Origin: Archaeoglobales archaeon
GTDB taxonomy: Archaea > Halobacteriota > Archaeoglobi > Archaeoglobales > Archaeoglobaceae
Length of the DNA: 64,000 nucleotides
Direction: 5' to 3'
Assembly: GCA_030055525.1 (NCBI GenBank)
Contig: JASFYJ010000001.1
Span: 26,616 to 90,615, forward strand
The notes beneath the pieces are model-generated. The model was not told the origin of the DNA and ran no database searches. It saw only the letters and a list, made by a program, of their open reading frames with translations. Positions 26,361-55,638 of the stretch are shown here, piece after piece. Position numbers and translations under genes: made by a program. Within the stretch, counting starts at the first letter, position 1, and each line of letters begins with the position of its first letter.

Positions 26361-26865
26361 TGAGTTATTGGCAGAGGTTGCATTGCGTGAAGTTGAAGAG
26401 GGCGATGAAGTCATCGAAATAGGTGCTGGAAGTGGATTTGTTGCTGAGAAGCTGTTGAATAAGTGCAGATCGATAACTGTTACGGAGATATCACCAATAG
26501 CGGCAAAGGTTTTGAAGGCAAAAAATTTCGATGTGATTGTTACAGATATAGCTGCTGGAATAAAAAAGAAGTTCTCTTTAGTTCTTTTCAACCCACCTTA
26601 CGTTGAAATGGAGGAGGAAATAAAAAAGGGAGATTTGGTAGATTTGGCAATTGATGGGGGCAAGCATGGAGTAGAGGTGATAGCAAAGTTTCTCAGGCAA
26701 CTTCCGAATTTTTTAAAAGAAGACGGAAGGGCAATCCTTATAGCATCTTCCATTAACGAACCTTACGTTTTTGATCTCATAAAAGATATGAAGCTGAAGT
26801 TTGAAGTAGTCGGAATGAAAAAATTGTTTTTTGAGCGGCTTTACGCGATCAAGATAACTTTTTGA
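26278..26865 (+). CDS. HemK/Mtq2-type N5-glutamine (release factor) methyltransferase
   Basis: [18 protein letters not shown] and FNPPY motifs. The start is uncertain (ATG 26278/26284 or TTG 26326), and it overlaps the rsmA end. Confidence 0.7.
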
Positions 26866-27421
26866 GTACTATAAAACGAGAAATAGTTTTGGAAATGTCG
26901 ATCTCCAATTCATCGATAAAAGTTCTGCCATCGATAACCTTTAATACAACTCCTGGCTTTACTATTGGAGACAGACTGGATGGAGAAGCAATTACTACAT
27001 ATTCTCCATCTTCCGCGTTTATTAGAGATCTTGTTCTTGCAGAACACTCTTCACAGGCGGTGCAAAAATCTGAAACGAGTTCACATAATCTTGAAGCTAT
27101 CTCGTCGTTTAGATGGTGTTCAAGTTCACACGCCAGATGTTCAGCTACCTCATCTTCAATTCCGAGAGACTTAAAAAAGCTTAGAGAGAGATCATGAAAG
27201 CGTTTTATTTTTTTTGCGATTTTTTCCCCTTCTCTCGTGAGTATAGCACCTTTGTAAGGTTGGTAATCTACGTAACCCATCTCCTTAAGTTTTGTGAGCA
27301 TCTCTGTAACACTTGGAGGTTTTATATTGAGATGCTTTGCAATATCTCCAGTTTTAGCAGATCTTTTCTCTTTCGTCTGTATGTCGTAAATTGTTTCTAG
27401 ATACTCCTCCACTCTCTCCAC
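26849..27421 (-). CDS. DtxR/MntR-family metal-dependent transcriptional regulator with C-terminal FeoA/SH3-like domain
   Basis: [10 protein letters not shown]..., an HTH ([22 protein letters not shown]), and a metal-site region (ELEHHL). Confidence 0.8.
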
Positions 27422-27462
27422 GATGTCAATATTCTTTGGTGTTAAAATTGTTTTCGTAAAAA

Positions 27463-28815
27463 CTAAGAACTTTGTTTTTCAAATAGACAAGCTATTACGT
27501 ATGTCAGTACTGAAATTGTAATCACGAATGCACTGCCTGGAATAGCAGCTATGCTTACCTTCCAAAATACAATTGATGTCGTAAATCCTGCTATGAGTGT
27601 CAAAATTCCAGAAAATTTTCCTCCCCTATTCCAGTGGAAGTAGCCAATTATCAATGGTAGCTGACAGAGTAAAATTGTAGAAGACAAAACAGACAACTCG
27701 ACTATGTATTCCAACCTTCTTGCAGCAAAGATTGCGACGATTGCCGTTAGTATTATTATACTTATTTTCCCGACTTTTATTCCTCTTTCGCCAACTATGT
27801 CTCTCGAAACCATTGAAGATAGGCTTAGAATTATAGAGTTAGCCGTCGTTATTGAGGCCATAAGAATGCTTAAACAGACTAAAAGCGCAATCCAAGTTGG
27901 GACCATCTGCATCAATGTTGGCGTTACCTTGTCTCTATCTGATACATAGGGAAATGAACCATCCAAGCTTAAAATACGCAGTTCCATTCCTAAGAACGTG
28001 ACTATGAAAGTGTAAATCAATCCAAAAAGTCCGAAATATATCACCATCCTCTTCAAAGCTTTCTCATCTCTTGGGATGAATATTCTCTGAAAAACCTGGG
28101 GGTTTGTTAAAGCGAAGAAAAACCATGGTATTACAAGTGCGGCAAATCTTGTGTAGTTCCAGTAGCTATTTGGAACATATAAAATTTCCCCAAGTTCGTT
28201 TAATCTGCTGAAGTCTGTTTTAATTGTTACGTAGCTAAGAAGAGCTAAAGCAGCGAACAGCATAAAGAGTCCCTGTATAGCGTCGGTTAAAGCAACACCC
28301 CTCAAACCACCTATAAACGCCCATAATGCAATCAAGAAGGCTGCAATTGCTATACCTGTATAGAACTCTATTCCAGAGATCTCCAAGATAAGAGCTACTC
28401 CAATAAGTTGTGCTGAGATGTAAGGTACTAAGGCAATCAAGCATATAATGGCTGCCAATCTTGCAGTTTCTTTACCATACCTCAAACTTAAAAACTCAGT
28501 TGGAGAGACAACGTTGCATTCTTTTCCAGTCTTCCATATTTTTGGCGCATAAAATGAGAGTAAAAAAAGAGTGCCGACAAGATACATCAATTCAAAACCA
28601 GCAGCTCCTACACCGCTCGCATAGCTTAAACCGACAAGTCCAACCATCATAAATGCAGAGTAAGTTGTGGCTGCGTAAGTTAAAGCTGAAACCAGACCAC
28701 CTATGTTTCTACGTCCTATGAAGTAATCTTCCTGAGTTTTTGCACCCTTTGCATAGAACGCTATTGCCGTTCCTATCGCCATGTAAATAGCAAGTGCCAG
28801 GATAACCTCATTCAA
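27463..28815 (-). CDS. sodium:solute symporter family (SSS) transporter
   Basis: About 13 TM segments and an SSS-like N-terminal pattern (FIGRRNIGG..., GGLRGVALTDAIQG). Confidence 0.75.
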   Translation of the reverse strand: MNEVILALAIYMAIGTAIAFYAKGAKTQEDYFIGRRNIGGLVSALTYAATTYSAFMMVGLVGLSYASGVGAAGFELMYLVGTLFLLSFYAPKIWKTGKECNVVSPTEFLSLRYGKETARLAAIICLIALVPYISAQLIGVALILEISGIEFYTGIAIAAFLIALWAFIGGLRGVALTDAIQGLFMLFAALALLSYVTIKTDFSRLNELGEILYVPNSYWNYTRFAALVIPWFFFALTNPQVFQRIFIPRDEKALKRMVIYFGLFGLIYTFIVTFLGMELRILSLDGSFPYVSDRDKVTPTLMQMVPTWIALLVCLSILMASITTANSIILSLSSMVSRDIVGERGIKVGKISIIILTAIVAIFAARRLEYIVELSVLSSTILLCQLPLIIGYFHWNRGGKFSGILTLIAGFTTSIVFWKVSIAAIPGSAFVITISVLTYVIACLFEKQSS

Positions 28816-28978
28816 GTTCCCACCTCCTAAAAGAGATGTACAGAAGGTAGATCGCCGCTAGTAGATTCCAATACACAAAAACCAATATATTAGTATTTTT
28901 TGGAGCTAAAAACGGTAGTAACATTAGTACTACGACGATTAGAATTTCCAACAATCTTTTCGAACTTCTGTTCGGCAT
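28808..28978 (-). CDS. small membrane protein preceding the symporter (DUF3311/YhdT-like accessory subunit)
   Basis: Two TM helices and an 8-nt overlap with the symporter start. I prefer the internal ATG at 28978 because the TATA box at 29001-29008 is then at -26. Confidence 0.5.
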   Translation of the reverse strand: MPNRSSKRLLEILIVVVLMLLPFLAPKNTNILVFVYWNLLAAIYLLYISFRRWELE

Positions 28979-28994
28979 CGAACATGTGTTCGAT
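28977..28994. promoter_or_regulatory. 18-bp palindromic operator candidate between TATA box and start site
   Basis: ATCGAACA-TG-TGTTCGAT is a perfect 8-2-8 inverted repeat. The TATA box (minus-strand TTTTTAAA) lies at 29001-29008. Confidence 0.5.
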
Positions 28995-29145
28995 ACAAGA
29001 TTTAAAAACATTTCGGTTTAGAGTAGCTCGGAATACCTCGCGCAGCCTTTTCCTTAGACTCCACTGGGGATCAAGGAAGTCAGAGAAAAATACAATCACA
29101 GAAATGAACAAGTAGTAAATAACTTACTTAGTCCAAAAACAAAAG

Positions 29146-29220
29146 CGGACCCGGCGGGATTTGAACCCGCGATCTACGGCTTAGAAGGCCGTCGCTCTGT
29201 CCTGGCTGAGCCACGGGCCC
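29146..29220 (-). tRNA. tRNA-Arg (anticodon TCT)
   Basis: Hand-folded cloverleaf: acceptor GGGCCCG/CGGGTCC, anticodon arm ACGGC-CTTCTAA-GCCGT, T arm GCGGG-TTCAAAT-CCCGC. No encoded CCA. Confidence 0.9.
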
Positions 29221-29258
29221 AAGCTCTGAGCTCTTAAACTCTTCGACTTATAAAGATT

Positions 29259-31283
29259 ATGAGTGCAAGCAATGAAAAGGTTATCTATCCTTCTTCTGTT
29301 AACCCTACTATGAAGCTTGTGACTTGCGGTCTTCCGTATGCTAACGGTAAAGCACATATTGGGCACCTGAGAACCTACATTCCAGCAGATGTGTATGTTA
29401 GATATCTCAGAATGCTCGGAGAGGATGTTATTTTCGTTTGCGGAAGTGATTGTCATGGGACTCCGATAGTTGTAAACGCTGAAAAAGAAGGCATGACCCC
29501 AAAGGAGTTTGTAGAAAAATACCATGAACACTTTAAGAACGTACTTAAAGCAGTTGGTGTTGATTTCGACTTTTACGGAAAAACTGCCGAAGAATATCAT
29601 CATGAAATGACTAGAGAGATCGTAAGGAGGATGATCGATGGTGGTTATATATATCCTGCAGAGGTTGAGCTCGCTTACTGTACGAGATGTGATAGATTTT
29701 TGCCAGATAGATACGTTGAAGGTATATGCCCCTACTGCGGCGCTATGGCGAGGGGAGATGAGTGCGATCAGGGATGTGGAAAACATTTAGAGCCTGGAGA
29801 GATAAAAGATCCGAGATGCAAGATATGTGGAAATCCAGCATCGTTCAGAAAACAAAAACATTACTTCTTTAAGTTAACGGCCTTTAAAGAATTTCTAACT
29901 CAGTATCTTGAAAATCTGAAAGCTACTGAAAACGCTCTGAACTATGCAAAGGAGTGGGTAAAAAATTTGCGTGACTGGTGTATAACAAGAGATCTTGAGT
30001 GGGGTGTTAGATTTCCAGGAGATGAGAGGTTTGTAGTTTATGTATGGGTAGATGCTCCAATAGGATACATCAGTTTTACAAAAAAGGCATGTGAAAACAG
30101 ATGCGATTGGGAAGCTATATGGAAGAGAGGGGAAGCCGAAATTATCCACTTCATAGGTTTAGATATCGTCTATCATCACTGCATTTTTTGGCCTGCAATG
30201 CTTAAGGCTGCAAATTTTTCTTTACCAACTGCGATCGTTGCAAGTGGGATGGTGAAAGTTGAAGGAAAGACTTTTTCTAAAAGCAGAGGATACGTTGTTT
30301 GGGTAGAAGAGGATTATCTAAAGCAAGGATTTAATCCGGACTATCTAAGGTACTACATTCTGAGCTACACAAGTCATCAGAAGGATCTTAACTTCTCTTG
30401 GAGAATTTTCAAGGATAAGGTGAACAATGAGCTCCTTGCAACTTTTGGTAATTTCCTCTACCGTGTTCTTCACTTTTCATGGAAGAACTTTGGAGAGGTA
30501 GAAATGGAGGTTGACGACGAGGTAATTGTAAAGATAAAAGAGACGAGGGAGAAGATAATCGATGCTCTGAACAAATGGGAATTCAAAATGGTCTGCGATG
30601 CATTTATGGAACTTGCTGCCTTTGGAAACTCCTATTTCCAGAGCGAAAAGCCTTGGGATTTAATAAAGCAAGACAAAAATGCTGCAAGGAAGGTTATTTC
30701 GAACTCATTGCAGTTAGCGAAGGCACTAATGATATTTGCATACCCTGTAATGCCAGAAAGCATGAAAAAGGTTGCAAAAGCTCTAGAATTAGATTTAACA
30801 AGTTGTTCTCTCGATGATGCTGCTAAGATCGACGAAAAAATGAAAGTTAGAAAGCCAGATCTACCATTTGAAAAAATAGACGAAAAGGTAATCGAAAGCC
30901 TAGAAAGAATGATGGAAAACAGATTTAAAGAAGCTGAAAAAAAAGTCGAAACTAAAGAGGAAGAGATCGGCTTGGAAGATTTCAAAAAGCTTGACATAAG
31001 AGTTGGAAGAGTTTTAAAGGCTGAAAAAGTTCAAAAAAGCAAGAAACTGCTAAAGTTGGAGGTAGATGTAGGTAACGAAGTAAGACAGATAGTTGCAGGA
31101 ATTGCAGAAAACTATGAACCTGAAGAACTCGTGGGAAAAAGCGTCGTTGTGCTAGTAAATATAAAGCCAACAAGGATCATGGGGTTGGAAAGCAGAGGGA
31201 TGCTTTTGGCAGCGGATGTGGATGGGAAAGCTGTACTTCTGATGCCAGAGAGAGACGTTGAGGCTGGAACTAAAATAAAGTGA
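29259..31283 (+). CDS. metG: methionine--tRNA ligase with C-terminal tRNA-binding (Trbp111/EMAP) domain
   Basis: PYANGKAHIGH (HIGH), a zinc knuckle (CPYCG...CDQGC), TFSKSRG (KMSKS), and a C-terminal DIRVGRVLKAEKV. An alternative start at 29310 fits the TATA at 29248-29255 better. Confidence 0.9.
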   Translation: MSASNEKVIYPSSVNPTMKLVTCGLPYANGKAHIGHLRTYIPADVYVRYLRMLGEDVIFVCGSDCHGTPIVVNAEKEGMTPKEFVEKYHEHFKNVLKAVGVDFDFYGKTAEEYHHEMTREIVRRMIDGGYIYPAEVELAYCTRCDRFLPDRYVEGICPYCGAMARGDECDQGCGKHLEPGEIKDPRCKICGNPASFRKQKHYFFKLTAFKEFLTQYLENLKATENALNYAKEWVKNLRDWCITRDLEWGVRFPGDERFVVYVWVDAPIGYISFTKKACENRCDWEAIWKRGEAEIIHFIGLDIVYHHCIFWPAMLKAANFSLPTAIVASGMVKVEGKTFSKSRGYVVWVEEDYLKQGFNPDYLRYYILSYTSHQKDLNFSWRIFKDKVNNELLATFGNFLYRVLHFSWKNFGEVEMEVDDEVIVKIKETREKIIDALNKWEFKMVCDAFMELAAFGNSYFQSEKPWDLIKQDKNAARKVISNSLQLAKALMIFAYPVMPESMKKVAKALELDLTSCSLDDAAKIDEKMKVRKPDLPFEKIDEKVIESLERMMENRFKEAEKKVETKEEEIGLEDFKKLDIRVGRVLKAEKVQKSKKLLKLEVDVGNEVRQIVAGIAENYEPEELVGKSVVVLVNIKPTRIMGLESRGMLLAADVDGKAVLLMPERDVEAGTKIK

Positions 31284-31289
31284 AGTATC

Positions 31290-31832
31290 TTAAAATTTTA
31301 ATCCACTCAGCTTTTCTATTTCTTCTTTCATCTTCAAAGCCCTTTTGATCGTTTCTTCAGTCAACCACTTCATTTCATTGCTGCTCAACTCGTCAATTCT
31401 CTTCAAAAAATCTTCGAAGGATACAACCCTCTCTCCAAACACGAGGTTATCGGCAAAACTCACTATCTTCTCCTCAAGCGTTTCAGGTATATAGTCCTTG
31501 GCTTCTAATCCCAACTTTAATGCATCATCTCTCGACAAACCAGCACTGAAGTGCCTCTCTGCTATTCTTACGATCCTCTCCTCGAAGCCGGCGTTTTTTA
31601 AAATTTTTGCAGACTCAATGAAATGCTGAAAGGGATCGTTGGTTATTGCTCTGCCAATATCGTGTAGCAAAGCGCCAAATTTTATCGATTCTATATCCAG
31701 CTCTTTTCCATTCTTTTTTATTTGTTCAGCTATCCTTAAAGCAAGCTCAGCCACAGCGATACAATGCTTTCTCACTCTTTCGGGCAAATTGTAGTTGTTC
31801 CAAAGAGCTTTAACTTCGTCTGGTATTTCCAT
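31290..31832 (-). CDS. HDIG-domain phosphohydrolase
   Basis: LLHDIGR motif. Length is 180 aa. Confidence 0.7.
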   Translation of the reverse strand: MEIPDEVKALWNNYNLPERVRKHCIAVAELALRIAEQIKKNGKELDIESIKFGALLHDIGRAITNDPFQHFIESAKILKNAGFEERIVRIAERHFSAGLSRDDALKLGLEAKDYIPETLEEKIVSFADNLVFGERVVSFEDFLKRIDELSSNEMKWLTEETIKRALKMKEEIEKLSGLKF

Positions 31833-31835
31833 AGC

Positions 31836-32258
31836 TCAGTCTATACTTCCCTTAAACAGTACATCCATCTTTGAAAGCACAGCCTTTGCTTTTTCAATGT
31901 CATTTACTCTCATTATAATTAATGCTTTATGTTTTCCCGAAGTGAATGCGTAGCAGTACTCGATATTCACATTTGCATCTCCGAGAGATTTTGCAATCTC
32001 ATACAAGGCTCCTGGCCTATCTTCCACCTCGACTGCAATAACATCCGTTAAACTAACTGTAAAACCGGATTTTTTCAGCACTTCGTAAGCTTCCTGTGTT
32101 TTGTCAACTACCATCCTTATAATACCAAAATCTCCCGCTTCTGCAATCGTAAAGGCTCTTATGTTCGTCTTTACCTCATTAAGCTTTTCAGTTACTGCCG
32201 CAAGTCTTCCTGGTTTATTTTCTACAAATACAGAAATTTGTTTCAACATATTTTTCAC
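31836..32258 (-). CDS. tandem ACT-domain protein
   Basis: Two ACT-like beta-alpha-beta-beta-alpha-beta repeats. It lies directly downstream of the phenylacetate-CoA ligase. Confidence 0.7.
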   Translation of the reverse strand: MKNMLKQISVFVENKPGRLAAVTEKLNEVKTNIRAFTIAEAGDFGIIRMVVDKTQEAYEVLKKSGFTVSLTDVIAVEVEDRPGALYEIAKSLGDANVNIEYCYAFTSGKHKALIIMRVNDIEKAKAVLSKMDVLFKGSID

Positions 32259-32283
32259 CCCTTTTATTTATCTGTATCTGCTA

Positions 32284-33585
32284 CTATATTTTTCTTCTGT
32301 CGAGAACCCTCTTAGCCTTACCCTCAAACCTCTGTAAAGTGCCTGGGTTTACGACCTCCACTTTCGCCCATACATTCAAGACGGATTTTAGCTCATCAGC
32401 CACTCTTTTTTCCAGCTCTATTATATCTGAGATCCTATCCACCTTGAATTTCTCACTCAGCTCAACCTGTACTGTCATCTCATCAAGTCCATCCTCTTTC
32501 CTATCGAGGATTATCATGTAGTGTTCTCCAAGTTCGGGAAATCTCATTAATACATGCTCAACTTGACTTGGGAATACGTTTATCCCTCTTACTATGACCA
32601 TATCATCTGTTCTACCAAGGATCCTCATGATCCTAGGATGTGTTCTGCCACAGCTGCATTTCTCCATCTCTATGTAGGTAAGATCGCCCGTTCTCCATCT
32701 TACGAGAGGTAAAGCTTCTTTGCTTAAAGTTGTGACTACTAGCTCACCCTTTTCCCCTTCCCCGAGCTGTTCTCCCGTCTTTGGATCGACAACTTCTATC
32801 AAAAAGTGATCAGCCCAAACATGGAGTCCACACTTTTCTAGGCATTCAGTAAAAAGTGGTCCACTGAGTTCCGAAGTTCCGTATACATCAAACGCCGATA
32901 TACCTGTTTTCTTTTCGATTCTTTTCCTAGTCTCTTCACTCCAAGGCTCGGCTCCAAATATTCCAACTCTCAATTTTGTATCGCTTGCGATATCCACTCC
33001 CATCTTCGCAGCAAACTCGGCAAGATATAGCATGTAAGATGGTGTACACGCTATTACAGTACTTCCAAGATCCCTCATCAATTCTATTTGTCTTTGTGTA
33101 TTTCCTGCGGAAATCGGTAGTACTGCAGCCCCAATTTTTTCTGCAGCATAATGAAAACCAAGCCCACCAGTAAACAATCCATAGCCGTATGCTATCTGCA
33201 CAATATCTTTATTACTTACTCCGCAACTTACCAGACCTCTGCAAAGGCTCTCTATCCAGACGTTGATATCGTTTGTGGTGTACCCAACTACGGTCGGTTT
33301 TCCAGTAGTTCCGCTTGATGCATGAAACCTCACAACTTGGCTAAGCGGTACAGCAAACATACCGAAAGGATAGGTATCCCTTAAGTCACTCTTCTTCGTG
33401 AAAGGTAGCTTACTAAGATCCTCAAGGCTTTTTATATCATCAGGCGTAATCCCTGCTGCTTTGAACCTCTCTCTATAGAATTGCGAGTAATCGTAGACTG
33501 TTCTCACCAATGCTCTAAGCTTTCTCTCCTGTATCAGCCTTAAATCGTCTTGGCTCATCCTTTCTATGCTTGGGTTCCAGTACAT
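32284..33585 (-). CDS. paaK: phenylacetate--CoA ligase (PaaK / coenzyme F390 synthetase family)
   Basis: SSGTTGKPT AMP-binding motif, YGTSE and RTDDM motifs. Length is 433 aa. Confidence 0.85.
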   Translation of the reverse strand: MYWNPSIERMSQDDLRLIQERKLRALVRTVYDYSQFYRERFKAAGITPDDIKSLEDLSKLPFTKKSDLRDTYPFGMFAVPLSQVVRFHASSGTTGKPTVVGYTTNDINVWIESLCRGLVSCGVSNKDIVQIAYGYGLFTGGLGFHYAAEKIGAAVLPISAGNTQRQIELMRDLGSTVIACTPSYMLYLAEFAAKMGVDIASDTKLRVGIFGAEPWSEETRKRIEKKTGISAFDVYGTSELSGPLFTECLEKCGLHVWADHFLIEVVDPKTGEQLGEGEKGELVVTTLSKEALPLVRWRTGDLTYIEMEKCSCGRTHPRIMRILGRTDDMVIVRGINVFPSQVEHVLMRFPELGEHYMIILDRKEDGLDEMTVQVELSEKFKVDRISDIIELEKRVADELKSVLNVWAKVEVVNPGTLQRFEGKAKRVLDRRKI

Positions 33586-36427: not shown

Positions 36428-36687
36428 TGGAAATAAAAGTCTTAGAAGTTGGAAAGGATTTTGCAAAGCTTCTGATAAAAGGTGAAGACCATACCTTTCT
36501 GAATTTGCTGCAGCACTATCTCGTGGAAGACAAAAATGTGGTCTTTGCGAAGTACCACATATCTCATCCGCTAAATCCTGAAGCAGAGCTATATGTAAAA
36601 ACCGTGGATGCCGCCCCACTGGAGGTAATAAAGAGGGCGAACGAAAAAATAGTTGAAGATTGTGATCAACTTTTGGGCCAGATATGA
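36421..36687 (+). CDS. rpoL: DNA-directed RNA polymerase subunit L (Rpo11)
   Basis: GEDHTFLNLL...YHISHPL motifs. Length is 88 aa. Confidence 0.9.
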   Translation: MVMEIKVLEVGKDFAKLLIKGEDHTFLNLLQHYLVEDKNVVFAKYHISHPLNPEAELYVKTVDAAPLEVIKRANEKIVEDCDQLLGQI

Positions 36688-36715
36688 CATCAGAACTCAA
36701 AACCCTCATCACTGT

Positions 36716-38182
36716 TCAGAGGGGCCCTTTCATCATCTGATTCTCCTTAACCTTTGGAGATTTTAATCTTACTACAAAAACAGTTCCAGCGGGTTTGTTA
36801 TCTTCAACCCAAACCCGGCCATTGTATCTTTCGACGAGCTTCTTTACGATATACAATCCAAGCCCACTTCCACTGCTTGGACCGTACTTGATACCTTCTT
36901 CAAATATCTTGGATTTTATCTCTGCGGGGATTCCTCTCCCATAGTCAGAAACACGAATTTCACATTCGTCATCAAACTCTGCAAGGGCTATACTTACGAT
37001 GTCACTTCCTGAATGTTTTACAGCGTTGGAAAGTAGATTCTCGACTATAGAATACAGTCCCTCATCAGCTAAAGCTGTACAGTTGCCGTTTACGTTTATC
37101 TTTACCTTATCCTCATACTTTCGAACGATATCTTCAACTACCTCTCTTACTACCATCACTTTAAGGCTGCTTTTTTCCGAGGTTACGATCTTTTCAAGTT
37201 CTCTGATCTTTTCTATGTATATTCCACAATCTTTAACAGCCTCCTTTGCTTTTTCCAATAATTCCGAATTCCTATTTTCCTGATAGAGCTCTATGTAGCT
37301 TAAAACTATCTGAAGTTTGTTTAGAATGTCGTGGCGGAGCATCTTGTTTATGGTCCCCAAAACATCCTTCAGCTCTTTTAAATGATAATAAAGTTCTTCA
37401 TATCTTCTCTTCTGTTCTTCAAGCTCCCCAAGACTTAGGATGATCAGGTTTTCTTTGTAGATAGCATACAATCCAGAAGTGAGGGAAACGATGGAAAGGT
37501 TGTAGAAAAGTGCAGGATAGGCTGATATGGGCTCTTTGAGGCATTGGGCTTTACTTAAAGAAATAAATCCAAAACAAAAGAATACATAATACCCCAAAAC
37601 CGAGATCCAGTAGCTTGAAGATTCATGGTTAGCGTAGATTCCCAATAGTAACGAGTATACTGCTACGGAAACTAAACAAAGCACAACTCCAATTTGATTG
37701 CTCTCTCTTATCTCGCAGGGCATTTCTGTTATTGCTAGATAGCCGACGAGGATCACAGCTGCCGGAATTGATAAAAAAGTTAAAACACTTGGTTTTAAGA
37801 ATTTTGAATCTTTAAGCAACTTTTGGAAACCAAAAATTAGTAGTGGGATCGTTGAAGCTACAAAAATGGATTCGTAGATTTCCTTTAGATACTCGAAGGT
37901 CAAAGGAAAACCTACTATATCATAGGAAACGAAAATCATGTTTAAAGTTAGTAGAGTGAGTAGAGTTAAAGAACATAACCCAAACAACTTTTTCTCGCCA
38001 TGAGAATTTACAAATATGGCGGCTGATATTACTAAAGCTAGTATTGTGAAGAGGGCACCGTAAGTTAGGGAGAAAGGTTCGAACAAATTTGATGAAACAA
38101 GCTCCGATAGAATGTAGGGTGTCAAAGCTACGAGGAACAGCAAAAGTACTGTGACTACTTTCTTCATAATCGTTATAAGCAT
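36716..38182 (-). CDS. sensor histidine kinase with polytopic membrane sensor domain
   Basis: About 7 N-terminal TM helices, a coiled linker, an H-box (LRHDILNKL), and HATPase N/G boxes (LLSNAVKH, DYGRGI, GSGLGL). Confidence 0.8.
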   Translation of the reverse strand: MLITIMKKVVTVLLLFLVALTPYILSELVSSNLFEPFSLTYGALFTILALVISAAIFVNSHGEKKLFGLCSLTLLTLLTLNMIFVSYDIVGFPLTFEYLKEIYESIFVASTIPLLIFGFQKLLKDSKFLKPSVLTFLSIPAAVILVGYLAITEMPCEIRESNQIGVVLCLVSVAVYSLLLGIYANHESSSYWISVLGYYVFFCFGFISLSKAQCLKEPISAYPALFYNLSIVSLTSGLYAIYKENLIILSLGELEEQKRRYEELYYHLKELKDVLGTINKMLRHDILNKLQIVLSYIELYQENRNSELLEKAKEAVKDCGIYIEKIRELEKIVTSEKSSLKVMVVREVVEDIVRKYEDKVKINVNGNCTALADEGLYSIVENLLSNAVKHSGSDIVSIALAEFDDECEIRVSDYGRGIPAEIKSKIFEEGIKYGPSSGSGLGLYIVKKLVERYNGRVWVEDNKPAGTVFVVRLKSPKVKENQMMKGPL

Positions 38183-40498: not shown

Positions 40499-40508
<10 letters not shown>

Positions 40509-42529
40509 GTTGGTTGATTATAGCGGAGAAGGATGATGCTGCAAGAAGGATAGCCAGTATACTATTCAAAGATTTCAGAACTCTAAAAGAGGGAAAGATC
40601 AACTACTATTATTCGGAGAAAAATGATTCTTATGTGGTTGGGTTGAAGGGACATATAGTGGAGCTAGATTTTCCTAAAGAACTCAAAAATTGGTTGAAAA
40701 CACCGCTAAATGAACTTTTAAATGCTGAATTTGTGAAGAAAGTGAAAGAGAAGACGATATACAATTTGATTAAAAAACTTGCCGAAAAAGTCGATAGAGT
40801 CACAATAGCAACGGACTATGACAGAGAGGGAGAATTGATAGGGGTGGAAGCGCTAGAAATTTTAAAAAGTACCAATCCGAATATAAAAGTAGACAGAGCT
40901 AGATATAGTGCCATAACAAAGGAGGAAATAACCAAGGCTTTTGCAAAAACGACAAACGTTGACTTCAACCTCGCAAAAGCTGCGCTTGTGAGGCAAAAGA
41001 TAGATCTTGTATGGGGAGCCGCTTTAACCCGAATGATCTCTGTTCATTCCGGAAGGCTGGGTAAAGATTTTCTGAGTGTTGGAAGAGTCCAAACGCCAAC
41101 TCTGCGCATAATAGTTGAAAGGGAAGAAGAGATCAGAAACTTTAGACCTGAAAAGTATTACGAAATTTCGGCAAAATTTGAAAGTTTCGAAGCTAAGCAT
41201 CCGAAGAAATACAAGGAAAGACCGGAAGCTGAAAAAGTTTTCTCCAATATTGGAGATTTCGGAGTTGTAAAATTTTTTACGAGAAAAAGCATAGAAGAAG
41301 CTAAGCCGATCCCGTTTAATACAACAGAGTTTCTGAGGGAGGCTTCAAAGTTCATGAGTCCTTACAAAGCTATGCAGGTTGCAGAATTCTTATACATGAA
41401 CGGATACATCAGCTATCCAAGAACGGACAATACAGTTTATCCAAAATCTATCGATCTTTTAGGAATTGCAAGAAGCTTTCTAAACAGTCCCTTTGAAAAG
41501 GAAGCTAAGATCGTTTTATCGCAGGAAAAGATTGAAGCATCAAGTGGTAAAAAAGAAAGCAAGGACCACCCACCCATATACCCTACAGCCATCGCAACAA
41601 GAAAAGATTTAAAAGATGATGAATGGATCATCTATGAGCTCGTTGTTAGAAGATTTTTAGCTACCTTAGCTCCAAGAGCCGTCTGGGACATAAGGAGGGC
41701 TGAAATTGATTGCAATGGTGTGAACTTTATCGCGAATGGAAGAAAAATTATTAGTGCAGGTTGGAGAGAAATTTACATTTATTCAAAAGCTGAAGAAGTT
41801 GAGCTACCAATTCTTAAAGCAGGTCAAAAAATTAGGTTGATCGAAAAGAAACTTGAGGAGAAAAAGACGAAACCACCAGCGAGGTTTTCAGCTTCAGCTT
41901 TAATAAAGTTGATGGAAAATCTAGGCCTAGGAACAAAATCTACGAGACATGAAATTATAAAGAAGCTTGTAAGCAGAGGCTATATAAGCGGAAATCCATT
42001 TTCTCCAAGTGAAACAGCTTTTTCAGTGATAAGTGTCTTAAAAAAAGTTGCTGAAACAATAACATTGCCAGATATGACTGCAAAACTTGAAAAAGAGATG
42101 GACGAAGTTGCAGAAGGTAAGAAGAAGGAAGAAGAGGTATTTGAAGATTCTAAAAAAATGCTTGAGAGCATCCTATCTAAAATAGACTACTCTCAATTGG
42201 CTTCCGAGTTGAAAGATGGGATAAAAAGAGACAAGGTTGTAGGCAAATGTCCCGAATGTGGGGCAGATATAGTTGTAAGAAAATCAAAGAATAAAAAGAG
42301 GTTCTTAGGCTGCACGAGTTATCCTAAATGTAATTTTACTCTACCCCTTCCGCAAAAAGGTACAATAGTCTTAACGAAAAAGGTTTGTCAAAAGCATGCG
42401 ATAAGGGAAATTAAGATCAAAGACAAAAAAACTTGGAATCTTGGATGCCCTTACTGCAACTACATAGAGTGGAAGAAAGCTCAGAACTGTAGCCCGGAGA
42501 GTAAACTCAACTCTTCATCGAAAGCTTAG
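40499..42529 (+). CDS. topA: type IA DNA topoisomerase with C-terminal zinc ribbons
   Basis: Toprim ATDYDREGE, active-site GYISYPRTDN, and C-terminal CPECG...C and C..C ribbons. Confidence 0.9.
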
Positions 42530-42544
42530 CTCTCTCAGAGTTGA

Positions 42545-42706
42545 TGACCCTTTCCGGGCCATTGTCCCATGCCCGGGTTGCTCCGGAATCATAGTAAGGT
42601 CCGCTCCTCACTCATCCGAAGACCTATCGGCATGGTGTATCCCCGAACTTGCAGAGAGACTTCATCGCCCAGCTTAAGCCGCCTCAGCCTCCTCCCCATC
42701 GGGGAT
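42545..42706 (-). ncRNA. double-hairpin H/ACA box guide sRNA (plus a short 3' hairpin)
   Basis: Hairpin 1 has lower stem AUCCCCGA/UCGGGGAU followed directly by ACA (42636-42638). Hairpin 2 has lower stem CCAUGCC/GGCAUGG then G-ACA (42563-42565). Both have 7-bp upper stems, K-turns (tandem GA with a 3-nt bulge), and 15-16 nt from upper stem to ACA. A TATA box (TTTTATT, 42727-42733) sits at about -25. Confidence 0.8.
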
Positions 42707-42808
42707 ATGAATAGTGGTCTTGGAGCAATAAAACCCTTCTGTCAGAATTAATAAGATTATTTTCGAGAAAATCAAATTTTTTAAACTGTTTATATTTAGA
42801 TTACTACA

Positions 42809-43258
42809 ATGGCAAAAGTTGCTGTTGGAGGTACATTTGAACCGTTTCACGAGGGACATAAAAAGCTATTAGACACAGCGATAAAACTTGGCGGCAAGGA
42901 TGTTACAATTGGAATAACAAGTGATAAAATGGCTAGAGTCAGACATAGAAGCGTGCTTCCTTTCAAGGTTAGGGCTGAAAACGTCAGAAATTACGTTAGA
43001 AAAGTCTACGGTTTCGAACCAGAGATCGTTCAGATATGTGATCCTTACGGTAAAACGCTCGAAATAGATTTTGATTACCTCGTAGTCTCCCCTGAAACAT
43101 ACCAAAATGCAATCAAGATAAATGAAAAGAGACTGGAGCTCGGAAAGAAAGCTATACAGATAATTCGCGTGGAATGGGTTGAGGCAGAAGATGGAAAACC
43201 GATTTCCTCAACAAGGATAAAGAAAGGTGAAATAGATAGATACGGCAAAAAAATTTAG
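42809..43258 (+). CDS. coaD: archaeal phosphopantetheine adenylyltransferase (cytidylyltransferase fold)
   Basis: VAVGGTFEPFHEGHKKLL (HxGH) motif and ISSTRIK. Confidence 0.8.
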   Translation: MAKVAVGGTFEPFHEGHKKLLDTAIKLGGKDVTIGITSDKMARVRHRSVLPFKVRAENVRNYVRKVYGFEPEIVQICDPYGKTLEIDFDYLVVSPETYQNAIKINEKRLELGKKAIQIIRVEWVEAEDGKPISSTRIKKGEIDRYGKKI

Positions 43259-55563: not shown

Positions 55564-55638
55564 AGCGGGGTGGGGTAGTCAGGTGATCCCGGCGGGCTCA
55601 TAACCCGCAGATCCGTGGTTCAAATCCACGCCCCGCTA
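55564..55638 (+). tRNA. initiator tRNA-Met (anticodon CAT)
   Basis: A1:U72 acceptor pair (AGCGGGG/CCCCGCU), discriminator A, three G:C pairs closing the anticodon loop (GCGGG-CUCAUAA-CCCGC), and T arm CGUGG-UUCAAAU-CCACG. Confidence 0.9.

Follow-up and report, generated by a model that had tools for sequence, protein, structure and literature searches.

A predicted three-hairpin H/ACA guide sRNA of the HgcG/Pab40 family at the 3' end of topA in an uncultured Archaeoglobaceae relative

The locus and the extent of the RNA

In the window (the whole 64,000-nt stretch of DNA analyzed here), topA (Toprim/Topoisom_bac/Zn_ribbon_Top1; ORF 40499..42529) and a CTP_transf_like gene both lie on the plus strand, and the sRNA gene lies between them on the minus strand. 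The gene forms a GC-rich island at 50-58% G+C, whereas the flank toward topA has about 36-41% and the 42700-42850 flank 27-29%. The first-pass annotation had proposed a two-hairpin H/ACA guide sRNA at this position, and much of its description was borne out when the window was re-read. The minus-strand sequence quoted for 42706-42563 matched exactly, hairpins 1 and 2 were found where they had been placed, each with the tandem G.A/3-nt-bulge signature of a K-turn, the ACA boxes were at 42638-42636 and 42565-42563 on the minus strand, and TTTTATT was present at 42733-42727. The two-hairpin architecture had to be replaced: three hairpins were found, and the element runs about 57 nt beyond the end proposed for it, reaching into the 3' end of topA. 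What had been placed after the second ACA as a short hairpin, UGGCCC-GGAAA-GGGUCA (42561-42545), is not a separate structure; it forms the 5' lower-stem strand and the 5' guide of hairpin 3. The features of the locus are listed below; L002 is an uncultured archaeon genome whose topA is 95% identical to that of the window.

42727..42733, minus strand: TATA-like box TTTTATT, read from the sequence; falls in the conserved A/U-rich upstream block when aligned with the HgcG model; identical in L002
42639..42706, minus strand: hairpin 1 (motif 1), from the sequence, the HgcG alignment and folding (z -3.67)
42706-42699/42646-42639, minus strand: lower stem of hairpin 1, plus U42698.U42647
42698-42694, minus strand: 5' guide of hairpin 1, UGGGG
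42693-42686/42661-42653, minus strand: upper stem of hairpin 1, with U42655 bulged
42685-84 (GA) and 42666-62 (GAUGA), minus strand: K-turn or K-loop of hairpin 1
42652-42647, minus strand: 3' guide of hairpin 1, GCAAG(U)
42636..42638, minus strand: ACA box 1, from the sequence, aligned to the ACA of the HgcG model; 14 nt from the upper-stem base
42567..42635, minus strand: hairpin 2 (motif 2), from the sequence and folds (z -4.71)
42635-42629/42573-42567, minus strand: lower stem of hairpin 2
42628-42622, minus strand: 5' guide of hairpin 2, GAUAGGU
42621-42615/42587-42581, minus strand: upper stem of hairpin 2, plus U42614.U42588
42613-12 (GA), 42611-06/42599-94 (C-stem) and 42593-89 (bulge plus GA, UAUGA), minus strand: K-turn of hairpin 2
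42580-42574, minus strand: 3' guide of hairpin 2, CAACCCG
42563..42565, minus strand: ACA box 2, from the sequence and the HgcG alignment; 15 nt from the upper-stem base
42491..42560, minus strand: hairpin 3 (motif 3), overlooked in the first pass, from the sequence, the HgcG alignment and folding (z -6.54)
42560-42553/42498-42491, minus strand: lower stem of hairpin 3, GGCCCGGA/UCCGGGCU, continued by A42552.C42499 and 42551-50/42501-00
42551-42545, minus strand: 5' guide of hairpin 3, (AG)GGUCA
42544-42537/42514-42507, minus strand: upper stem of hairpin 3, 8 bp, UCAACUCU/AGAGUUGA
42536-35 (GA), 42534-29/42525-20 (6-bp C-stem) and 42519-15 (GAUGA), minus strand: K-turn of hairpin 3
42506-42500, minus strand: 3' guide of hairpin 3, GUUUAC(U)
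42488..42490, minus strand: ACA box 3, from the sequence and the HgcG alignment; 16 nt from the upper-stem base
42488..42529, plus strand: end of the topA ORF (~42 nt, stop included), antisense to hairpin 3
42471..42487, minus strand: 3' trailer with the U-rich tract GCUUUCUUCC, from the sequence

The stability of the RNA was compared with that of shuffled sequences. A 243-nt stretch folded at -105.3 kcal/mol and was more stable than 200 of 200 dinucleotide shuffles (z = -4.57). Both the minimum-free-energy and the centroid folds contained three hairpins with a lower stem, a pocket, and an upper stem, and hairpin 3 alone gave the best z-score (-6.54, versus -3.67 for hairpin 1 and -4.71 for hairpin 2). 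The K-turn signatures, taken from the sequence only, are GA/GAUGA in hairpins 1 and 3 and GA/UAUGA in hairpin 2, and in every hairpin 8 layers and two G.A pairs, 10 in total, lie between the K-turn and the pocket. The published 10/5-6/9 rule, as set out in PMC4652768, comprises a 9-layer lower stem, a 3' guide of 5-6 nt, and 8 bp plus two G.A pairs up to the K-turn, followed by ANA; the same paper places the ANA box 14-16 nt from the pocket. All three hairpins conform to this geometry, hairpin 2 in a 10/6/9-like form and hairpin 3 with one A.C layer in its lower stem. Hairpin 1 conforms, as a 10/5/9 fold, only when the upper stem is closed by A42693-U42653 and G42692-C42654 and U42655 is bulged; the Rfam alignment places this bulge identically. 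These two pairs lengthen the upper stem, so that the pocket first drawn for hairpin 1 was 2 nt too long on its 3' side and the 3' guide reads GCAAG(U) in place of CUGCAAGU. Because of this misplacement, the ACA distances and targets predicted in the first pass were partly off. The ACA spacing of 15-16 nt stood for hairpin 2 (15 nt), whereas hairpin 1 has 14 nt; the third hairpin has 16 nt. The C-stem of hairpin 1 is imperfect, as had been recognized, and this hairpin is therefore K-loop-like; Pab40.1 is labeled as a K-loop in the PMC4652768 supplement.

The center of the TATA-like box precedes the first base of hairpin 1 by about 24 nt. Acting as a putative promoter, it would probably direct transcription to start about 24 nt downstream, and the Pab40 transcript in P. 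abyssi begins at the first base of the H/ACA motif, according to PMC4652768. At the other end of the gene, GCUUUCUUCC is a possible archaeal oligo-U termination site. Mechanical ORF calling produced two reading frames across the sRNA gene, 42569-42751 (+) and 42674-42859 (-), of 60 and 61 aa, which are probably spurious.

The overlap with topA was examined in related genomes. MAGs of hot-spring type, among them GCA_038887895.1, are available for the organism, and its topA protein is 61-64% identical to Archaeoglobaceae MAG proteins. In the Archaeoglobaceae homologues L001 and L003, query residues 1-654 were matched and the last ~22 aa were unmatched, which suggests that the C-terminal tail of topA is encoded where the reading frame continues into the sRNA gene as far as the first stop codon. 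L002 retains the convergent overlap of topA with hairpin 3. No HgcG-like RNA was found within 5 kb of topA at any of four Archaeoglobaceae MAG loci (L001, L003, L004, and L013), suggesting that the synteny of the sRNA with topA is lineage-specific.

Family membership and covariation

Rfam matched the element to RF00064, HgcG (Pab40), at 42483-42760 on the minus strand over the full model (1-276/276), with 70.6 bits and an E value of 5.6e-19 in a 601-nt search or 5.9e-17 in a search of the whole window. The gathering score of RF00064 is 77, so the window copy lies below it, and at the Rfam gathering thresholds the window yielded two tRNAs only. The L002 copy also covered the full model (1-276) and scored above the gathering score, with 78.5 bits and an E value of 1.6e-19. 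The three tandem H/ACA motifs are collinear with the HgcG model.

Covariation supported the stems in comparisons with both the HgcG consensus and L002. Against the HgcG model, whose consensus we take to have been built from Thermococcales sequences, the 57 consensus pairs of the window RNA comprised 23 unchanged pairs, 3 kept with a one-sided change, 22 kept with two-sided changes, 6 broken pairs, and 3 in gaps. Five of the six broken pairs belong to the inner portion of motif 2, a region in which Pab40 also folds atypically. In hairpin 1, 8 of 15 pairs were changed on both sides, and hairpin 3 showed 11 two-sided changes and no broken pair. The window and L002 RNAs were 93% identical, with 20 differences. 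Six substitutions fell in paired columns and affected five pairs, all of which remain standard pairs; among them, U42537-A42514 of hairpin 3 is compensated to C-G. One further difference was an indel within an A-run. The guide strands are the same in L002 except for 42698 U to C, the stems and guides of hairpin 2 are unchanged, and all three ACA boxes and all K-turn G.A pairs are kept, whereas flanks and loops differ. L002 was the only diverged close homologue found; five other contigs of the same organism (L022-L026) were 99.7-100% identical and hence uninformative for covariation.

Pab40, Pf7, Pho40, and Afu4 have been described as one family of three-motif H/ACA sRNAs (PMC2377435; PMC2584109), and Pab40 is expressed in P. 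abyssi and active in reconstituted sRNPs (PMC2377435). The element in the window is a member of this HgcG/Pab40/Pf7/Afu4 family, and among the features that could be checked only the Rfam bit score of the window copy fell short. The first-pass annotation was right about the class, an H/ACA RNA with K-turns on the minus strand, as indicated by the full-length HgcG/Pab40 match, the covariation, and the rRNA complementarity at sites known for the family. It had regarded the element as hidden; as an orthologue of a known family, whose members direct pseudouridylation at functional centers of 23S rRNA, it is not novel. Like the window RNA, HgcG/Pab40 (Pyrococcus abyssi), Pf7 (P. furiosus), and Pho40 (P. 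horikoshii), represented by RF00064, consist of three H/ACA hairpins arranged in tandem and in the same order; every hairpin has an ACA and either a K-turn or a K-loop, and a conserved A/U-rich box lies upstream. Pab40 and the window RNA also share the motif 2 guide blocks GGUC and AACCC, which are common to the HgcG consensus, and their pockets match the same helix 89 site in motif 1 and the same helix 69 site in motif 3 (PMC2377435). The two RNAs differ in host, an uncultured Archaeoglobaceae relative versus Thermococcales, and in several details. Relative to HgcG, compensatory changes have replaced 22 stem pairs of the window RNA, and its score is just under the Rfam gathering value. The 3' guide of motif 1 is GCAAG in the window RNA and GCGAC in Pab40, motif 2 is a regular K-turn hairpin instead of the irregular Pab40 fold with its long guide strand, and the guides of motif 3 show one additional U on the 3' side and a C in place of U on the 5' side.

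Predicted targets in 23S rRNA

From the known properties of the family, L7Ae would bind the K-turn or K-loop of each hairpin, and Cbf5-Nop10-Gar1 would dock on the lower stem and the ACA box. The two strands of each internal loop would base-pair to the 23S rRNA sequences flanking an unpaired U-N, whose U would then be isomerized to pseudouridine by Cbf5. By analogy with studied members of the family, this organism is expected to express the sRNA, to form the sRNP, and to carry the corresponding pseudouridines.

Pairing was tested on a heterologous haloarchaeal 23S rRNA (Natronorubrum, L028) rather than the host's own, and helix 89 differs among lineages. This rRNA comes from a plasmid operon of Natronorubrum bangense, in which Rfam confirmed archaeal SSU and LSU rRNA. 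The record (NZ_CP031309.1, 115 kb, filed as a plasmid) contains a complete 16S-tRNA-23S-5S-5S operon at 26500-33500, and the PLSDB gene table has no features in that interval. On the Natronorubrum 23S rRNA, pocket complementarity flanking an unpaired U-N was found for hairpins 1 and 3; for hairpin 2, it was found under relaxed junction rules only, at a chance level of 2-10%. The bipartite targets predicted in the first pass were only partly right. The two tRNAs in the window showed no complementarity to any of the three pockets.

In hairpin 1, GCAAGU and UGGGG form 6+5 contiguous bp with GGCUUGC-UA-CCUCG at U2526 of Natronorubrum 23S rRNA. Shuffled hairpin 1 pockets reached at least 11 bp anywhere in 16S and 23S rRNA in 11 of 500 trials, and the Pab40.1 consensus pocket selected the same site, U2526. 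Because CCUCG corresponds to E. coli positions 2498-2502, the predicted target is the equivalent of C2496 in helix 89. The U-to-C change at 42698 in L002 converts a U.G pair with the G of the target to C-G. The target first proposed for this hairpin, ACUUGCAG-UN-UCCCCA, gives way to CUUGC-UA-CCUCG as the pairing partner. A collection-wide metagenome scan for a site of the former type, joined to the universal CCUCGAUGUCGGCU, found no rRNA; its pattern, RYTTGYRGTNCCTCGATGTCGGCT, is 2 nt out of register, and the single match (L027) lies inside a protein-coding gene and is attributed to chance. A scan of viral contigs for an archaeal 23S motif found nothing.

In hairpin 3, the 5' guide AGGGUCA makes 7 of 7 Watson-Crick pairs with UGACCCU of archaeal helix 69 (Natronorubrum 23S rRNA), and the 3' guide GUU(U)AC pairs with GUAAC around U1951, which is E. 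coli U1915 in the helix 69 loop. The pairing at U1951, GGGGGUAAC-UA-UGACCCU, comprises 3+7 contiguous bp, or 8+7 if one guide U is bulged. The Pab40.3 consensus pocket also selected U1951. The match is qualified by the bulged U needed in the 3' guide and by the ACA distance of 16 nt.

[quoted passage not shown] Muller et al. located psi2016 (Pab40 motif 3) in the helix 69 loop and listed psi2588 (Pab40 motif 1) among domain V pseudouridines in helices 89, 90, and 93 (PMC2377435). We assign psi2588 to helix 89 because the Pab40.1 consensus pocket matches there. Hairpin 1 would guide modification in the 3' strand of helix 89, at the equivalent of E. coli C2496 and P. abyssi psi2588, and hairpin 3 would act on the helix 69 loop, at E. 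coli U1915 or P. abyssi psi2016. The mapping of Afu and Pab positions to E. coli and Natronorubrum positions uses offsets derived here, not from the Afu or Pab sequences; in domain V, the offset of Pab minus 92 to the E. coli number is consistent at two independent sites, 2588/2496 and 2678/2586. The 2678/2586 agreement draws on H. marismortui numbering. Earlier hits on E. coli rRNA (23S U2039, U2257, U2698, U1344, and U1956; 16S U429) did not recur on archaeal rRNA and are ascribed to bacterial sequence differences and the pocket boundaries first drawn. These include U1344, which was attractive through an old Afu4.3-L1364 proposal and was not reproduced on Natronorubrum 23S rRNA.

For hairpin 2, no canonical site with at least 9 contiguous bp was found in the E. 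coli or Natronorubrum rRNAs or the two tRNAs of the window, and CGGGUUG-UN-ACCUAUC, the target proposed in the first pass, was absent from the same set. A relaxed search of Natronorubrum rRNA, permitting 0-2 unpaired junction nt and 2-3 unpaired target nt, gave two best sites: one in the A-loop at U2584/2585 (E. coli U2554/2555), where GGUUG-UUC-GCCUAUU offers 12-13 bp, and the other at U2616, the counterpart of E. coli U2586, where GGGUU-UA-GACC offers 10 bp. Shuffled hairpin 2 pockets reached at least 13 bp in 2% of trials and at least 12 bp in 10%. By the derived offsets, the two sites are L2601 and L2632 of A. fulgidus, both proposed as candidate targets of Afu4 motif 2 (PMC2377435 and PMC4652768). 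The most likely target of hairpin 2 is the A-loop (U2554/2555, Afu L2601), U2586 (Afu L2632), or both, with a noncanonical junction being needed. This targeting is the weakest step of the explanation. In the fold of the free RNA, the hairpin 2 pocket is partly self-paired, GGU with ACC. A more elaborate proposal is that hairpin 2 serves both U2554/2555 and U2586 through a switch in junction pairing that opens the C42621-G42581 closing pair, and that the overlap of hairpin 3 with topA couples the expression of the sRNA and topA; we consider this combination unlikely.

Afu-4 of Archaeoglobus fulgidus, which belongs to the cultured family nearest to this organism, also has three H/ACA motifs (Tang et al. 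2002, following the accounts in PMC2377435 and PMC4652768). Its reported or proposed targets are L1970 in helix 69 (motif 3) and either L2601 or L2632 (motif 2); by the derived offsets, they coincide with the best sites obtained above for hairpins 3 and 2. The sources differ on motif 1, which is directed to 16S 1167 in PMC4652768 and to the 23S site equivalent to that of Pab40.1 in PMC2377435. Orthology with Afu-4 is drawn through Pab40 and target identity, Afu-4 having been compared by description rather than direct alignment. Haloarchaeal HP1/HP2 (Hvo1/Hvo2) and eukaryotic snR191/U19 guide pseudouridines of the helix 69 loop, as predicted for hairpin 3, and have been described as homologues of Pf7 stems III and II (PMC2584109). 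The haloarchaeal hairpins also act near the peptidyl-transferase center, the pseudouridines that they guide in all being Hma psi1956, psi1958, and psi2621 (PMC2584109), and the eukaryotic snoRNAs have an H-box/ACA two-hairpin layout without a K-turn.

Alternative readings and other RNA genes of the window

Altogether, we estimate a probability of about 0.93 that the minus-strand gene of ~220-230 nt (about 42706 to 42480) encodes a three-hairpin archaeal H/ACA guide sRNA orthologous to HgcG/Pab40, Pf7, and Afu4. An HgcG-type relic in decay, which still folds and has lost guiding in at least hairpin 2 or the bulged-guide hairpin 3, would account for the subthreshold Rfam score, the missing canonical target and partly self-paired pocket of hairpin 2, and the extra U in the hairpin 3 guide. 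However, L002 conserves the ACA boxes, the K-turn G.A pairs, and, apart from 42698, the guide strands while flanks and loops vary, and every stem substitution in L002 keeps pairing. In addition, hairpins 1 and 3 match the experimentally known sites of the family, and motif 2 of P. abyssi is likewise atypical yet active (PMC2377435). Decay is therefore very improbable.

Slightly less probable again is a two-hairpin H/ACA sRNA that ends at the second ACA (42563) and is followed by a terminator-like hairpin (42561-42545). This reading rightly includes hairpins 1 and 2 with their ACA boxes, and UGGCCC and GGGUCA are able to pair locally, but in the minimum-free-energy and centroid folds GGCCCGG is paired instead with CCGGGCU, which lies 60 nt downstream. 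The third hairpin so formed has the best z-score, its own K-turn, and its own ACA; it fits HgcG motif 3 with no broken pair, carries a compensatory change in L002, and matches archaeal helix 69 with all 7 nt of its 5' guide. The least probable reading is a cis-antisense regulator of topA with H/ACA guiding as a secondary function, the 3' part of the RNA being the complement of the final ~42 nt of topA mRNA: the overlap is real and kept in L002, but a topA frame running on into the sRNA gene is a simpler account of it. The last ~22 aa are unconserved in L001 and L003, the sRNA is not beside topA in four Archaeoglobaceae MAGs, and all the constraint observed on the sequence is of the H/ACA guide type.

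The three-hairpin guide sRNA is of value mainly for annotation. A gene scoring just under the Rfam gathering value would be missed in this lineage by standard pipelines, and gene callers could report spurious small ORFs or an overlong topA in its place. With this assignment, another thermophile lineage joins those that carry the Pab40/Pf7/Afu4 family and its targets in helices 89 and 69, and a further, independent case is added of guides that follow conserved functional sites in 23S rRNA. No new question is raised for H/ACA biology.

Other RNA genes were observed in the window. Two archaeal-type tRNA genes lie at 29146-29220 (-) and 55564-55638 (+), with 64-68% G+C compared with ~38% for the genome. 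At 36687-36740 (-), Rfam snoPyro_CD gave 39.6 bits (gathering score, 45) with an E value of 9.7e-5. This segment, whose boxes read AUGAUGA (C), CUGA (D'), GUGAUGA (C'), and CUGA (D) with 10- and 12-nt spacers, is likely an archaeal C/D box sRNA. The candidate is also present at L002:1191-1244, and in the window it overlaps the last ~25 nt of a 488-aa ORF (36716..38182) on the same strand.
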